From Escherichia phage FL31: a DNA stretch of 64,000 bases. The notes under the pieces are model-generated. The model was not told the DNA's origin. It worked only from the letters and a program-made list of their open reading frames with translations, and ran no database searches. The translations under genes and the position numbers were made by a program. Of this stretch, positions 31,605-35,930 are shown in pieces. The DNA lies in the sequence record PP400782. One strand, 5' to 3'. Positions within the stretch are counted from its first letter, which is position 1. Each line of letters begins with the position of its first letter.

Positions 31605-31616
31605 TTGGAGGTTTAT

Positions 31617-32390
31617 ATGGCAGTAACAGGACCATGGGTAGGATCGTCTGCAGTAGTTAATACAGGACAAAATTGGATGGGTGGCGCGGCCCAACGATTA
31701 AGAATGGGCATTCCGTTTTGGATGAGTAATATGATAGGTCGATCTGTTGAAATAATTCACACGCTTGGAGCAGACCATAACTTCAATGGCCAATGGTTCC
31801 GAGATAGATGTTTTGAGGCAGGTAGTGCACCTATAGTGTTTAATATCACTGGAGATTTAGTATCATATTCTAAAGATGTTCCTTTATTCTTCATGTACGG
31901 AGATACACCAAATGAATATGTTACTTTGAATATTCATGGTGGAGTTCATATGTGGGGACGAGGTGGTAACGGTACTGTAAACGGAAACCCAGGTACAAAT
32001 GGCGGCGATGTAATCCAAAATGATATCGGCGGAAGACTTCGTATTTGGAACTATGGCGTTATTGCATCAGGCGGCGGTGGTGGTGGTGCAGTGTCATTAC
32101 AGAATAGCTGGGCGCCAAATGCTACAGCAGGTGGCGGTGGTGGTAGACCATTTGGCCTCGGCGGCGGTGGCGTTAATTGGCCGGGTGGTAATGCTAGTTA
32201 TGACGCCCCGGGCGGTGCCGGTTACACTTCCCAATTCGGCGGAGGCAATGGTGGTGATGCTGGAGGTCGGGGCGGAGATGGATGGGGTAATCACTTATCT
32301 AGATCTGGCGGTGGTGCTCCTGGCAGAGCAGTATTCGGAAGTTCACCGTCATGGGGTGCTACAGGCACAATCTACGGCTCCTGGATTTAA
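31617..32390 (+). CDS. 38: receptor-recognising adhesin gp38 (T2/T6 type)
   Basis: Start at ATG 31617 preceded by GGAGG (ORF track used upstream TTG); [36 protein letters not shown] plus Gly-rich blocks match T2-type gp38. Confidence 0.8.
31950..32345 (+). repeat. glycine-rich motifs (GGY codon runs) alternating with variable segments in gp38
   Basis: [49 protein letters not shown] in translation; ggcggtggtggt runs in DNA. Confidence 0.7.
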
Positions 32391-32435: not shown

Positions 32436-33095
32436 ATGGCAGCACCAAAAGTATCATTTTCGCCTAGTGATATTTTATTTGGGTTGCTAGACCGCATTTT
32501 CAAAGATAACGCCTCTGGAAATATTCTTATTTCCAGAGTTGCTGTTGTAGTTCTTTTGTTCCTAATGGCACTAATATGGTACAAAGGGAATATTTTTATG
32601 GATTATTACGTGAGGTCGAAATATGATACTTACACAGAAGTAATTCAAAAAGAAAGAAATACACGATTTGAATCTGCGGCTTTAGAACAACTACAAATAG
32701 TCCACGTCACATCAAGGGCGGATTTTAGTTCGGTGTATTCTTTCAGACCTAAAAATCTAAATTATTTCGTCGACCTTATTGCGTATGAAGGTAAGTTACC
32801 TAGCACAGTAACTGAAAAATCTATGGGAGGATTTCCTGTCGATAAAACGACAGCAGAATATTCGGTCCATTTAAGTGGACTTCACTTTACTTCTAAAACA
32901 GATTTTGCTTTCTTACCTACCAAATCAAAAACTCCGGAACTGGCATATATGTATAGTTGTCCTTACTTCAATTTGGATAACATATATGCTGGAACTGTTT
33001 CTATGTATTGGTATAAGGGGTCAGATGTGTTAAATGAAGAACGCTTGGCCGCAATATGCAACCAAGCTGCAAGGATATTAGGGCGGGCTAAATAA
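32436..33095 (+). CDS. t: holin / lysis inhibition sensor T
   Basis: MAAPKVSFSPSDILFGLLDRIFKDNASG...RVAVVVLLFLMALIWY...CNQAARILGRAK matches T4 holin; SD GGGAGG; late promoter 32409-32416. Confidence 0.95.
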   Translation: MAAPKVSFSPSDILFGLLDRIFKDNASGNILISRVAVVVLLFLMALIWYKGNIFMDYYVRSKYDTYTEVIQKERNTRFESAALEQLQIVHVTSRADFSSVYSFRPKNLNYFVDLIAYEGKLPSTVTEKSMGGFPVDKTTAEYSVHLSGLHFTSKTDFAFLPTKSKTPELAYMYSCPYFNLDNIYAGTVSMYWYKGSDVLNEERLAAICNQAARILGRAK

Positions 33096-33368
33096 TTAGT
33101 TGTTAGAATACATCGTCAAATGGCGATAAATATTTTCAAAACCTTCATTGAATTCACTAATCAGTGTTTTCTTTTCTTCGGCAGTTAAATTTGTAATTAG
33201 TTTTCTGAACGAATTCTGATTTAGCTGCCGACCATCTTTTTTAATTCCAATCTCATTCAAGAATCCGATGAAATTTGCTCGGTCTTCAACAATATCTTCC
33301 CTCGAGAATTTAATCAAAATAGAAGCAACCGTAATAATTTCACGTACAATTTCAATATCTTTATTCAT
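33096..33368 (-). CDS. asiA: anti-sigma70 protein AsiA
   Basis: 90 aa; MNKDIEIVREIITVASILIKFSREDIVEDRANFIGFLNEIGIK matches T4 AsiA. Confidence 0.92.
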   Translation of the reverse strand: MNKDIEIVREIITVASILIKFSREDIVEDRANFIGFLNEIGIKKDGRQLNQNSFRKLITNLTAEEKKTLISEFNEGFENIYRHLTMYSNN

Positions 33369-33414
33369 AACGTTTTATTCATTCCATTTGGTTGATATGA
33401 GTATAGTACCATTA

Positions 33415-33576
33415 TCAGTGTTGATTGTAAACAGCTTTTTCTACACTTTTAACGTAATCAGTGTAGTCTTCCTGTTCATACGAGTGTAAGGCCAAGAACG
33501 TGGCTAATAGTTCATTATAGACTAAAGCCTCACGCTCACGTTCTGCCTCTACTACGTTCTGAAGATTATGGCTCAT
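33415..33576 (-). CDS. hypothetical small protein (53 aa)
   Basis: ORF track, start moved to internal ATG to avoid overlap. Confidence 0.35.
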   Translation of the reverse strand: MSHNLQNVVEAEREREALVYNELLATFLALHSYEQEDYTDYVKSVEKAVYNQH

Positions 33577-33577
33577 A

Positions 33578-33865
33578 TCATTCCTTATAACTATCAATGT
33601 AGTCCTGTATGTCAAAGAATGACATTTCATATTCTAGGACATTAAGAGCCCGTTCTTCAGTATAGTCAGAACCAAATACGATAGTGATTTCACCAGGCTT
33701 CATATGATTGAAATCGACACTAAAAGGAATACGAGAACATACTTCGTCTGCCATATCTGCAACAACACTACGATATACTTCTCGGTTAACCTGATAAAGC
33801 TCTGCAAGTTCTTCGCAACGAATAACAAGTTCAGTGGCAGGATTTTCTTTTATTTTAGTAAGCAT
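33578..33865 (-). CDS. acidic small protein (95 aa), possible Arn-like anti-restriction protein
   Basis: About 20 acidic versus 9 basic residues; T4 arn (92 aa) lies in this interval; no sequence-level confirmation. Confidence 0.45.
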   Translation of the reverse strand: MLTKIKENPATELVIRCEELAELYQVNREVYRSVVADMADEVCSRIPFSVDFNHMKPGEITIVFGSDYTEERALNVLEYEMSFFDIQDYIDSYKE

Positions 33866-33939
33866 AGTCTTTACCCTTATGTTTTTGTTTACGTTTAGAT
33901 TGAAGTTCTGATTTCTTCTTGTCCTTATGGACAGAAGCC

Positions 33940-34167
33940 TTATTGAAATCGTGTTTTGCTACAAGATTGTTCATAATGATTTATAACCTCATTTAAACAT
34001 TTATCGGTAAAAGAAAACTTTTTAGCCACAGAACATTCGATGATGTGTTCTTTCAAATCTTTAGAGTCAGTATAACCCATCTCAGTAATAAAGTGGCGAA
34101 TTAAAGCTTTATTCTTATCATTAACAGAATTAAAATAATCTGCTTTAGAATCAATTATTCTCATCAT
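33940..34167 (-). CDS. hypothetical protein (75 aa)
   Basis: ORF track. Confidence 0.45.
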   Translation of the reverse strand: MMRIIDSKADYFNSVNDKNKALIRHFITEMGYTDSKDLKEHIIECSVAKKFSFTDKCLNEVINHYEQSCSKTRFQ

Positions 34168-34432
34168 CTAATTTCCTTAATTGATATTGCAACGAGCTAA
34201 TAATTTCTTCGTTCATTTTAATATACATGTCGCGCAAGAAAGGTTTTAACCCATCACGAATAATTGCCAACGTATCACCTTTACATAAATTAACCAAATA
34301 AGGATGATCTAAAGCATCCCAACCCGGCTGATTAGCATACATACCATAGTTTTCTTCCATCATATGATTAAGACGTTTGATATCTTGGATACGTGATTCA
34401 ATAGCATCTTTCTGGAGTTGTTTAATATTCAT
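34151..34432 (-). CDS. hypothetical protein (93 aa)
   Basis: ORF track. Confidence 0.45.
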   Translation of the reverse strand: MNIKQLQKDAIESRIQDIKRLNHMMEENYGMYANQPGWDALDHPYLVNLCKGDTLAIIRDGLKPFLRDMYIKMNEEIISSLQYQLRKLDDENN

Positions 34433-34893
34433 TAATAAAGGTCCTCTGAATAAAGTTCTTTCTCACTTCCACCACGTTCAATATGTACCTGTCCAGCATA
34501 CGTTGCAATAATCATTGCTTCTTCACGAGTCCAGTAATTAGAGTATTGGTCGATAAAGCCTTGGTCATCGCCACAAACTTGTTGCGAGACTAATTGAGGA
34601 CCAACTATATCAAGTACTTCAGCCATATCTTTAGAGTAATGACGAACTCCAGGAATAACCAGAGTTCCACCGCTCTTCAATTTAAACCTATTAGCTGCAC
34701 ATACTATAACACGTTGAACTTTTTGGTCATTATTCCAATAGCACGTTTGCCAACAGATTTCAGGAACTTCATTCATTATATCATCAGCAGAATAATTATA
34801 ACCGTAGGACTGGAATTTTTCTGCTAGACTTTCAGGAGTCTCACGAGACAAGGCCAAATCTAATAGCTCTAAACGTTCTTTAAATGATTTCAT
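34432..34893 (-). CDS. hypothetical protein (153 aa)
   Basis: ORF track; conserved-looking blocks [34 protein letters not shown]; function unknown. Confidence 0.5.
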
Positions 34894-35219
34894 TTAAACC
34901 ATTCCTTAATACGTTGCCAAATAGATTTTTGTGCTTGTTTATTTACACCAATCGAACGAATAACCGGTTGTGACTGCTGGTATTCTTTGTAATCTTCTTT
35001 ATAGATTTCGTAAGGTGCATCAACAAATGAACTGATCGCTGCCATGTAGTTTTTACGAAGGCCAAATGGCGCGTCATTATTTTCACGAATAACCGTATAT
35101 TGGCCTGCTTTAATCTTTACAATTGTCCCTAAATAAGCCCCGTGGTACCAAATATCCCATCCTTCCTGAGTAGGTTCTGCACATTTACGAAGTTCGTTAA
35201 TAATATTCAGCTTATTCAT
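34890..35219 (-). CDS. hypothetical protein (109 aa)
   Basis: ORF track; 4-nt overlap with upstream gene. Confidence 0.5.
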
Positions 35220-35229
35220 TATGTATTCC

Positions 35230-35862
35230 TCACAGTACGTTAGTTACAAGGGTAATGATTTCTTTGGACACATTAGGGAAGTCAATGTAAGTATATTTAC
35301 CACCGATCTTAATCTTAACATCATTTTCAAGAGAAGTAAACAGCTTTGATTCAGTTTCTGACATGTTGTATGCAAAGATTCTAAGAGCGCCATCTCGACG
35401 AATTTCGATCTGACGAATACCTAGAACTCGTTTTGCAAATCGAACTTCCAAGTTACTACGGTTTTCACCAATTTCCTTAACTTCAACTTTATCTTTAATA
35501 TTTTCAAAAACAAAGTTTGCTAGTTCATGCATTTCAGGAGTAACTCCACGTGCTTTTCTAGTGTTACGTTTCTGAAGAAGTTCTGGAGCATTTTCTTGAG
35601 CAAATAGGTCTGCAGCTTTTTGGATAATATTCATTGCTTCGCCTGTTGCTACAAGTCCATCACCAGATTTTTCGACTAAACCTTTCTTAATCAATACACC
35701 AATGTTAGAGTTAACAACCGATGCATTGTATTCTGCTTCCAGAGCTTCACGGACATTGGCAGCAGTGGTGAAGTTGTTCTTAATGATATAAACCATTATT
35801 GCAGCAGTTTTTTCATTCAGAACGTTTTCAGAAGCTTTGATGATGTAAGTAACTTTAGACAT
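35230..35862 (-). CDS. motA: middle-transcription activator MotA
   Basis: 210 aa; MSKVTYIIKASENVLNEKTAAIMVYIIKNNFTTAANVRE...NSNIGVLIKKGLVEKSGDGL matches T4 MotA. Confidence 0.88.
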   Translation of the reverse strand: MSKVTYIIKASENVLNEKTAAIMVYIIKNNFTTAANVREALEAEYNASVVNSNIGVLIKKGLVEKSGDGLVATGEAMNIIQKAADLFAQENAPELLQKRNTRKARGVTPEMHELANFVFENIKDKVEVKEIGENRSNLEVRFAKRVLGIRQIEIRRDGALRIFAYNMSETESKLFTSLENDVKIKIGGKYTYIDFPNVSKEIITLVTNVL

Positions 35863-35892
35863 TTTATTTCTCCAATTTGGTTGTTTTGTTTT

Positions 35893-35930
35893 GATAGGTC
35901 TATAATATCATGTTTGAAGCACATGTAAAC
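35893..35930 (-). promoter_or_regulatory. early-type promoter (GTTTAC ... TATTAT) upstream of motA
   Basis: Minus-strand read; directly downstream of gene 52 terminator. Confidence 0.5.

Follow-up and report, generated by a model that had tools for sequence, protein, structure and literature searches.

The arn cluster between asiA and motA of the RB69-like phage FL31, with a candidate divergent Arn and a two-module Arn.3

The DNA analysed here, referred to as the window, is a stretch of 64,000 nucleotides from Escherichia phage FL31 (sequence record PP400782), an RB69-like Mosigvirus. Within it, asiA (33096-33368; Pfam AsiA E 3e-33) and motA (35230-35862; MotA_activ E 2.5e-39) flank an interval that is 98% identical to that of phage Bas46. 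The interval is filled by seven co-directional genes on the minus strand, namely arn.4, arn.3, arn.2, arn.1, a 39-aa gene of the DUF7230 family, an acidic ORF and an AsiA.1-like gene. Holin t, asiA, the interval, motA and gene 52 follow one another in the window as they do in T4 and RB69. Synteny and orthology identify 33415-35219 as the arn cluster of a T-even phage of the RB69 type. The features are as follows.

33415..33576, minus strand: AsiA.1-like small acidic protein, 53 aa (100% identical to RB69ORF258c)
33578..33865, minus strand: candidate divergent Arn, 95 aa, equal to RB69ORF259c (acidity, synteny, predicted fold)
33855..33974, minus strand: DUF7230 basic peptide gene, 39 aa, pI 10 (Pfam PF23876; phrog_1359 E 3.8e-22)
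33940..34167, minus strand: Arn.1, long form, 75 aa (phrog_4452 E 3.8e-40)
34151..34432, minus strand: Arn.2, 93 aa (phrog_1844 E 1e-40)
34432..34893, minus strand: Arn.3, 153 aa, two modules (phrog_839 E 5e-70; AF2 pLDDT 91.1)
34435..34713, minus strand: T4_Y16D core of Arn.3, residues ~61-153, beta-beta-alpha-beta-alpha with the conserved C-terminal tail LYSEDLY
34804..34893, minus strand: CmdA-like two-helix module of Arn.3, residues 1-30 (PADLOC PDLC04070, PD-T4-9_B, E 1.9e-7)
34890..35219, minus strand: Arn.4, full-length form, basic, 109 aa (phrog_1594 E 1e-51)
35902..35929, minus strand: promoter-like site upstream of motA, the best of the interval (TTTACA-16-TATTAT with an upstream TG, 10/12 matches)

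An earlier sequence-only reading had called this the T4 arn region, and the shared T4/RB69 gene order together with the T4 orthologues of Arn.1 to Arn.4 bears this out. All the ORFs that it named are present on the minus strand at the coordinates it gave, but its count of six has to be raised to seven, as the 39-aa ORF at 33855-33974 was overlooked. The six ORFs have not turned out to be T4 orthologues with known non-defence roles; a function is known for Arn only. The ORFs between asiA and motA are real, far beyond chance, because they are conserved in ~1,000 phage records. Identity to T4 is 79% for Arn.1, 41% for Arn.2, 76% for Arn.3 and 73% for Arn.4. The T4/T2 arn operon (arn.4-arn.3-arn.2-arn.1-arn) has the same gene set, order and orientation (bioRxiv 10.64898/2026.06.19.733364), and arn.4, arn.3 and arn.2 are translationally coupled in FL31 as they are there. 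Unlike in T4/T2, however, the FL31 arn gene would be of the divergent type, and arn.1 and arn.4 of FL31 are full-length at 75 and 109 aa; as annotated in T4 they have 43 and 68 aa.

The small accessory genes are close to those of RB69. Arn.1 is 100% identical to its RB69 counterpart over 72 aa, while T4 Arn.1 matches residues 30-67 only. Arn.2 has 99% identity with RB69 and is also kept in VR25, EcS1, Roth51 and EnC07. Arn.4, present in about 1,000 phage records, is 97% identical to RB69 Arn.4, and the annotated T4 protein spans its residues 43-109 only. A profile search of PDB sequences with Arn.4 gave no match. Its assignment as a PBECR2 nuclease/RNase (PF18810) was rejected, as the lone hit (E 0.015) stayed at 15.9 bits, below the cut-off of 27.1, and only one of nine diverse homologues matched. 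The 39-aa ORF belongs to DUF7230 (PF23876; E 5.4e-13, 49.3 bits, with a Pfam gathering score of 27) and overlaps the end of arn.1 and the start of arn. By tblastn it is 100% identical in RB69, 97% in Bas38, 82% in VR25, 79% in T4 and 69% in Roth51. It is unannotated in RB69, T4, Bas46 and Bas38; annotated homologues occur in EcS1, EnC07 and CGG4-1. The AsiA.1-like protein matches phrog_5245 (E 1.7e-31), which T4 AsiA.1 also matches (E 2.6e-4, residues 1-28). The ORF read earlier as 33415-33630 (71 aa) exists, but its start is improbable: an AAGGA ribosome-binding site precedes the start at 33576, the upstream ATG (33630) has none, and the MSHNL... N-terminus is kept in RB69ORF258c, T4 AsiA.1, VR25, EcS1 and Roth51. 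The gene therefore most likely starts at 33576, and the 71-aa form appears to be an over-extension.

The arn genes are tightly packed, with start/stop overlaps and ribosome-binding sites. For example, arn.4 overlaps the start of arn.3 by 4 nt, and there is no arn.2-arn.1 intergenic region because these two genes overlap by 17 nt. In T2, arn.4 to arn has been reported as one transcript, the arn genes have been called middle, in contrast to the 'early' ORFs of the earlier reading, and ArcZ pairing was placed in the region of the arn.2 3' end (bioRxiv 10.64898/2026.06.19.733364). The pairing site CCAGGGAAA lies at the 3' end of T4 arn.2 but is absent from FL31, as is the 70-nt intergenic region with an RNase E site of the T4/T2 operon. 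ArcZ regulation as in T2 was rejected here, since the pairing site is missing. An Rfam search of the interval gave no match. The promoter-like site upstream of motA carries a MotA-box-like TGCTTCA (35921) at its -30 position, and no comparable site was found directly upstream of arn.4; such sites are consensus matches only, and their number does not exceed that in shuffled controls.

Arn.3 is 98.7% identical to its RB69 counterpart. The Pfam family T4_Y16D (PF26092) is precomputed on 119 of the 120 listed homologues. By sequence and motifs Arn.3 is a member of the family. The motifs CAANR, RH, QGFID, R..EA and LYSE.LY are invariant in alignments of 47 and 114 sequences, and the invariant columns of the Arn.3 family include A66, A67, R84, H85, Q111, G112, F113, D115, R123 and A126. 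The blocks singled out in this ORF by the earlier reading are present and coincide with the invariant columns. Its description of an enzyme-like protein that could not be placed still holds, as the protein is strongly conserved and has invariant polar residues, but neither sequence nor fold searches detect a relative whose function is known. A remote Pfam scan of 114 diverse T4_Y16D members at E<=1 returned no consistent family, and an NCBIfam search returned no match. Ten long homologues (225-434 aa) carry N-terminal extensions without a Pfam domain and with unknown PHROGs only. Distant homologues lie among anonymous small phage genes, with no Arn.4 or Arn.2 partner by HMM, and the Arn.4-Arn.3-Arn.2 linkage is accordingly specific to Tevenvirinae.

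The match of Arn.3 residues 1-30 to the CmdA N-terminus is new in this analysis. CmdA is the antitoxin of CmdTAC, that is, the PD-T4-9 toxin-antitoxin-chaperone system, and like Arn.3 it has an N-terminal helix pair (PMC9519451, PMC11618068). The comparison was made with the PADLOC profile PD-T4-9_B and not with the CmdA sequence itself; this profile corresponds to CmdA because of the gene order exotoxin-A-like, unknown and SecB-like. Residues 1-30 align to the first 30 of the 77 profile positions, the N-terminal 43 aa taken alone match with E 3.2e-8, and helices are predicted at residues 4-16 and 20-29 (AF2 model). The profile is matched by nine of 47 Arn.3 homologues (best E 2.5e-10), so that the module is found in a subset only. 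At the level of sequence, Arn.3 is thus shown to be a fusion protein, in which the orphan domain T4_Y16D is preceded by a two-helix module of ~30 aa that is homologous to the N-terminal part of CmdA. The likeness ends there. CmdA has a disordered C-terminal chaperone-addiction region and an LAA ClpXP degron, whereas the rest of Arn.3 is folded (pLDDT >90 for most of residues 41-130) and ends in SEDLY. The CmdA gene, as part of a defence operon, lies between the CmdT ADP-ribosyltransferase and the SecB-like chaperone, while the phage-encoded arn.3 lies between arn.4 and arn.2, outside any defence operon; Pfam, PHROGs and PADLOC searches found no ART or SecB gene beside it. Searches for CmdA gave no match in E. 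coli genomes (blastn), nothing relevant in plasmids (tblastn), a lone chance match in genome contigs (an Anaerolineae MAG, helix-hairpin-helix-like by eye) and, in viral contigs, T4-like phages only. The module is also found within an unrelated Klebsiella siphophage protein, which shows that it is a portable unit.

The best explanation of these features is that the CmdA-like helices of Arn.3 would dock onto a partner, possibly a toxin of the CmdT ADP-ribosyltransferase type or else the binding partner of the CmdA helices. T4_Y16D, through its invariant Arg/His/Gln/Asp/Ser/Glu/Tyr residues, may bind or process a small phosphorylated ligand or a nucleic-acid adduct. These two steps are the weakest part of that explanation. 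A doubtful, though serious, alternative is that Arn.3 is a housekeeping-type enzyme or ligand binder in phage nucleic-acid or nucleotide metabolism, whose N-terminal helices serve in some generic way for oligomerisation or as an adaptor, their occurrence in CmdA being incidental. More than 5,000 protein clusters contain the T4_Y16D core; they include small non-T4 phages and mostly have no CmdA-like module, and the function of the core is therefore independent of the module. Invariant polar residues are typical of active or ligand sites, and the Klebsiella modular protein, unrelated to Arn.3, adjoins an exonuclease and a helicase. Against a metabolic role, knockdown of T4 arn.3 has no fitness effect on a laboratory host, unlike what is seen for core metabolism, and neither Arn.3 nor T4_Y16D has a PDB fold relative or similarity to a known enzyme fold or family. 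In addition, Salmonella phage CGG4-1 retains only a decayed arn.3 fragment of 75 aa, a pattern typical for accessory genes, and Foldseek also detects T4_Y16D within conflict-associated architectures of the 'large polyvalent protein' type.

The homology to CmdA could also mean that Arn.3 is a stable antitoxin mimic against CmdTAC-type systems, in which the helices would neutralise CmdT after the degradation of CmdA. T4 Dmd offers a conceptual precedent, as it replaces the antitoxins RnlB and LsoB and neutralises the abortive-infection toxins RnlA and LsoA once the labile host antitoxin is lost. Dmd, as far as we know, has no homology to the antitoxins that it replaces, whereas Arn.3 carries a module homologous to CmdA. 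Arn.3 has neither the ChAD tail nor the LAA degron, since its module runs into a folded domain, and ClpXP could then not remove it; T4_Y16D would stabilise the protein or also strip ADP-ribose from mRNA. CmdTAC is specific to Tevenvirinae, the module-bearing Arn.3 homologues found belong to T4-like phages, and among CmdTAC homologues the sequence of the antitoxin is 'widely variable', in keeping with an arms race. However, the published CmdTAC phenotypes argue against full protection by Arn.3. The ECOR22 CmdTAC restricts Tevenvirinae 1e2- to 1e5-fold, Bas46 and T4 among them, and only Bas35 and Bas38 are unrestricted (PMC11618068). Bas46 Arn.3 is 99.3% identical to that of FL31, the sole difference being at residue 137, and since Bas46 is still restricted, a simple CmdTAC-inhibitor role for Arn.3 is not supported. 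The type of module shows no pattern with escape among Bas35, Bas38, Bas46 and T4, and neither does its similarity to CmdA: the CmdA-like module scores 25.6 bits in Bas35 and 28.0 bits in Bas38, both of which escape, and 29.6 bits in the type that the window has in common with the restricted Bas46. Moreover, T4 escape mutants mapped to alt.-3 and not to arn.3, and the Klebsiella protein has the module without T4_Y16D. An antitoxin mimic is therefore improbable. A more elaborate version, which we regard as quite unlikely, makes Arn.3 a new kind of two-part counter-defence protein, where the captured CmdA helix fragment would target CmdT-family mRNA ADP-ribosyltransferases and T4_Y16D, a domain without structural precedent that occurs in thousands of phages, would as an enzyme or sponge reverse or block nucleic-acid ADP-ribosylation or a related nucleotide-based signal, giving protection against CmdTAC variants other than that of ECOR22.

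The second protein of interest is the 95-aa acidic ORF, which was rightly described as strongly acidic (pI 4.37, 20 D+E against 9 K+R, net charge about -11; T4 Arn has pI 4.55). It sits between asiA.1 and arn.1, the syntenic position of Arn in RB69, Bas46 and T4. The Arn fold (beta-beta-alpha-alpha-beta-beta-alpha-alpha, about 92 aa) is reproduced by its predicted structure, a prediction made from a shallow alignment, and on this basis it is predicted to fold as T4 Arn does. The earlier proposal of an Arn-like candidate thus stands on acidity, synteny and predicted fold; a sequence match to the Arn family, on the other hand, did not come. There was no match to Pfam Arn PF22134 at E<=0.1 or to T4 Arn by BLASTP, and T4 Arn (3wx4) was absent from a phmmer search of the PDB at E<=10. 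Reciprocal PHROG matches between the two types are sub-threshold (E 0.014 and 0.0054), hhalign gives E 2.7e-4 with a probability of only 42%, and identity to T4 Arn is 16%. T4 Arn (PDB 3WX4) falls in PF22134 and phrog_3151, whereas the FL31 protein falls in a separate PHROG, 8202. Outside Mosigvirus this PHROG occurs only in some mosaic phages of Tequatrovirus, and it has relatives at 31-33% in Gaprivervirus. These comparisons place the FL31 protein in an Arn superfamily that evolves fast and shares little beyond a C-terminal DY motif. That it is instead a common small alpha/beta fold, convergent with Arn and of unrelated function, is very unlikely.

As a DNA mimic, T4 Arn inhibits McrBC, H-NS and PUA-Cal-HAD, and it forms a dimer with DNA-mimicking surface charges (PMC12871103). 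The divergent Arn, an acidic protein as well, would work in the same manner by occupying the DNA-binding surface of host proteins, for example type IV restriction enzymes. It shares so little sequence with T4 Arn that it probably acts on a different range of targets; between T4 and T2 Arn, three substitutions already go with a different target range (PMC12871103), and therefore the targets of FL31 Arn probably differ too.

As a whole, the seven coupled accessory genes, dispensable on laboratory hosts, are best explained as a host-takeover and counter-defence cassette, a reading that we consider likely with the divergent Arn and Arn.3 steps included. In T4, CRISPRi-ART knockdown of arn, arn.1-4 or asiA.1 gave the score 'Not Fit' in every case, here taken to mean no fitness effect. 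About a thousand sequenced T-even-like phages keep the arn operon. The RB69-type acidic ORF, in which the predicted fold is conserved and the sequence scrambled, suggests that the Arn DNA-mimic family spans genera, and annotation pipelines miss this type of Arn because of that scrambling. Arn.3, so far an anonymous 'conserved hypothetical' protein, now poses a concrete question, that is, whether its CmdA-like helices have CmdT or another protein as partner. Such a partner, or the ligand or activity of T4_Y16D, would inform how T-even phages handle toxin-antitoxin-chaperone defences.

The window is an RB69-like Mosigvirus, and its bases 33000-35900 share 98.3% identity with phage Bas46 (ChristianSchoenbein) and 97.6% with RB69. 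The minus-strand genes are ordered as gene 52, motA, seven small genes, and asiA, with the holin gene t on the plus strand beyond asiA. This layout matches that of T4, and the asiA-motA region is a known, annotated cluster. Its features discussed here are:

33096-33368, minus strand, asiA
33578-33865, minus strand, acidic 95-aa ORF (RB69ORF259c)
33855-33974, minus strand, 39-aa basic ORF, Pfam DUF7230 (E 5e-13)
34432-34893, minus strand, Arn.3, 153 aa
35230-35862, minus strand, motA

All seven small ORFs are preceded by Shine-Dalgarno-like sequences, and most of them overlap or abut (arn.4/arn.3 by 4 nt, arn.3/arn.2 by 1 nt). The sequence-only reading made a real observation here and interpreted it essentially rightly; its ORF coordinates are correct, the sequence blocks it quoted lie in ORF 34432-34893, and the ORF it described as acidic has a pI of 4.37. 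The six ORFs it counted are real, but the seventh gene, at 33855-33974, was overlooked. Its first ORF exists, but the true start is most likely 33576 (53 aa) rather than 33630, and the product from the former start is identical to RB69ORF258c. Outside the cluster, a plus-strand ORF of 261 aa (31605-32390) that contains long runs of glycine sits directly upstream of holin t and is presumably a gp38-type tail-fibre adhesin.

The overlooked gene shows 79% identity to an unannotated T4 ORF. It is lysine-rich (...SKRKQKHKGK...), lies between arn.1 and arn (T4 copy at about 161583-161699 of NC_000866; 1784-1900, minus strand, of the T4 locus L003), and is kept at 69-100% identity in T4, RB69, Bas38, VR25, and Roth51, in whose records it is unannotated. 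Among its neighbors, identity to the T4 proteins is 79% for Arn.1, 41% for Arn.2, 76% for Arn.3, and 73% for Arn.4. For Arn.1 and Arn.4, the annotated T4 forms (43 and 68 aa) lack N-terminal sequence that those of the window have (75 and 109 aa), and about 1,000 phage records contain Arn.4 in its full-length form. The Arn.4-Arn.3-Arn.2 trio adjoins motA in T4, RB69-type phages, Gaprivervirus, Kagamiyamavirus, Karamvirus, and Klebsiella phage Roth51, with lineage-variable gene content between Arn.2 and asiA in the same groups.

The arn region of Bas38, a Tequatrovirus (L033, 944-2751), is a mosaic that combines T4-like Arn.4 and Arn.3 with an RB69-type set of Arn.2, Arn.1, DUF7230, Arn, and AsiA.1-like genes; the two parts appear to have been joined by recombination between arn.3 and arn.2. 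Salmonella phage CGG4-1 is without Arn.2 and has Arn.3 cut to a 75-aa fragment keeping the QGFIDQ...REEA part alone (L030, 2930-3157), a case of gene decay within the Gelderlandvirus lineage. Some phages carry inserted ORFs of 51-58 aa, similar by eye, on one or the other side of arn.4, next to arn.3 or next to motA (Bas35, L055 4841-4996; VR25, L004 959-1135; CGG4-1, L030 2437-2604). The window has none of them, and these sites may be a hot spot for insertion. When arn, arn.1-4, and asiA.1 of T4 were knocked down by CRISPRi-ART, each scored 'Not Fit'. Read as no fitness effect on a lab host, these scores fit accessory, host-specific functions.

A single strong promoter-like site is seen, upstream of motA (35929-35902), and it includes a MotA-box-like TGCTTCA; a weaker one stands ahead of asiA. 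According to a June 2026 preprint, arn.4-arn of T2 form one transcript, which is stabilised by pairing of the host sRNA ArcZ at the arn.2 3' end, with Arn.1-4 described as of unknown function (bioRxiv 10.64898/2026.06.19.733364). The T4 arn.2 3' end (L003, about 2077-2100) has CCAGGGAAA, complementary to ArcZ UUUCCCUGG, whereas neither this 9-mer nor any of four tested 7-mer sub-sites occurs in the arn mRNA of the window (arn.2 3' end at 34151-34240, minus strand). The 70-nt arn.2-arn.1 intergenic region with an RNase E site is likewise absent from the window, because the long arn.1 overlaps arn.2. Hence, judging from these two missing elements, ArcZ-dependent stabilisation may not apply to RB69-type phages.

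Compared with T4 Arn, the acidic ORF gave no Pfam Arn match and no BLAST match, nor did phmmer return a PDB match. The relatives detected for it are Mosigvirus-type proteins (at least 82% identity) and Gaprivervirus proteins (31-33%). Significant direct sequence similarity to Arn is absent; the profile signals are weak, but reciprocal and full-length (T4 Arn to the ORF's PHROG, E 0.0054; the ORF to the Arn PHROG, E 0.014), and a profile-profile alignment covers 81 collinear columns (E 2.7e-4, 42% probability). T4 Arn is nearly equal in length, similar in acidity, and likewise placed between an asiA.1-like gene and arn.1. The C-terminal motif x-x-DY-(I/F/L) is common to the same-locus variants of VR25, EcS1, and Roth51. 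From predicted fold, synteny, and these profile signals, we conclude that the ORF probably encodes a fast-evolving, divergent new member of the Arn family. As three substitutions between T4 and T2 Arn already shift the target range (PMC12871103), its predicted targets may well differ from those of T4 Arn. The ORF is labelled 'Arn' in the Bas46 and Bas38 records and hypothetical in RB69. Divergent true Arn proteins are usually named hypothetical in GenBank phage records; phrog_4452, which is Arn.1, bears the label 'anti-restriction nuclease', and pipelines put the same name on further genes of the arn region, as in PHB12 with 'anti-restriction nuclease (x4)'. Many GenBank records thus seem to be systematically mis-annotated.

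Arn.3 combines two parts. Its residues 1-30 match positions 1-30 of the 77 in the PADLOC profile PD-T4-9_B (E 1.9e-7; E 3.2e-8 for the module on its own), and going by this profile they would be homologous to the CmdA N-terminus. PD-T4-9 is the toxin-antitoxin-chaperone system CmdTAC, with the antitoxin CmdA as its second gene (PMC9519451, PMC11618068). The profile is also matched by 9 of 47 homologues of Arn.3 (best E 2.5e-10), and the module is confined to a subset of homologues. An unrelated 320-aa protein from Klebsiella phage Geezett has the module too, at its residues 105-132 (E 2.7e-9), which makes the module a portable unit. That protein, gp63 (L031, 2198-3160), adjoins an exonuclease and a helicase; it is modular, has no Pfam domain, and continues after the module with the motif GTPWDERIHS...WRLRRK and with linkers rich in proline and acidic residues. 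A 2025 paper mentions 'a component of the PD-T4-9 defense system' in vibrio T4-like phages, which may be the same signal.

The AlphaFold2 model of Arn.3 (47 sequences, pLDDT 91.1) has three N-terminal helices, with helices at residues 4-16 and 20-29, then a beta-hairpin, a beta-beta-alpha-beta-alpha core, and a short C-terminal helix. In CmdA, too, the matching segment forms two helices at the N-terminus. The precomputed Pfam match on 119 of 120 listed homologues is PF26092 (T4_Y16D), an uncharacterised family. An exhaustive profile search over 1.84 billion representative proteins gave 5,027 clusters at E<=1e-3, of which 1,733 reach E<=1e-10. In nearly all of 150 listed proteins the core of ~95 aa sits at the extreme C-terminus, ending LYSE(D/N)LY. 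Among 114 diverse members, H85, G112, F113, R123, L147, and E150 are invariant and A66, A67, R84, Q111, D115, Q135, S149, and Y153 nearly so, a pattern suggestive of a site for catalysis or ligand binding. No functional lead came from fusion partners, gene neighbourhoods, weak Pfam matches, NCBIfam, or BFVD, and no fold relative was found in the PDB; the one functional hint is a Foldseek result with weak E-values, which puts T4_Y16D within three entries named 'large polyvalent protein'. The 153-aa protein that the first reading could not place is still without a functional placement.

Our main reading is that Arn.3 would be a modular accessory protein, in which the N-terminal helices serve as a docking element and the core binds or processes a ligand. 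CmdTAC defends specifically against Tevenvirinae (PMC11618068). It is triggered when capsid protein titrates away the chaperone; CmdA is then degraded, which frees CmdT, an mRNA ADP-ribosyltransferase. Having CmdA's structured part without its degron, Arn.3 is an obvious candidate for a stable antitoxin mimic, but published phenotypes count against the simple version. Among twelve BASEL Tevenvirinae, every phage except Bas35 and Bas38 is restricted 1e2- to 1e5-fold (PMC11618068), and the restricted Bas46 has an Arn.3 one residue away from that of the window. Moreover, the module scores follow no escape trend (Bas35 25.6 bits, Bas38 28.0, window-type 29.6, T4 16.4), and T4 escape mutations are located in alt.-3, not arn.3. 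On these grounds such mimicry is considered unlikely. That Arn.3 represents a novel kind of counter-defence protein directed against ADP-ribosylation is quite improbable. The unexpected CmdA-like module and the very large orphan domain family offer two new concrete handles on Arn.3.
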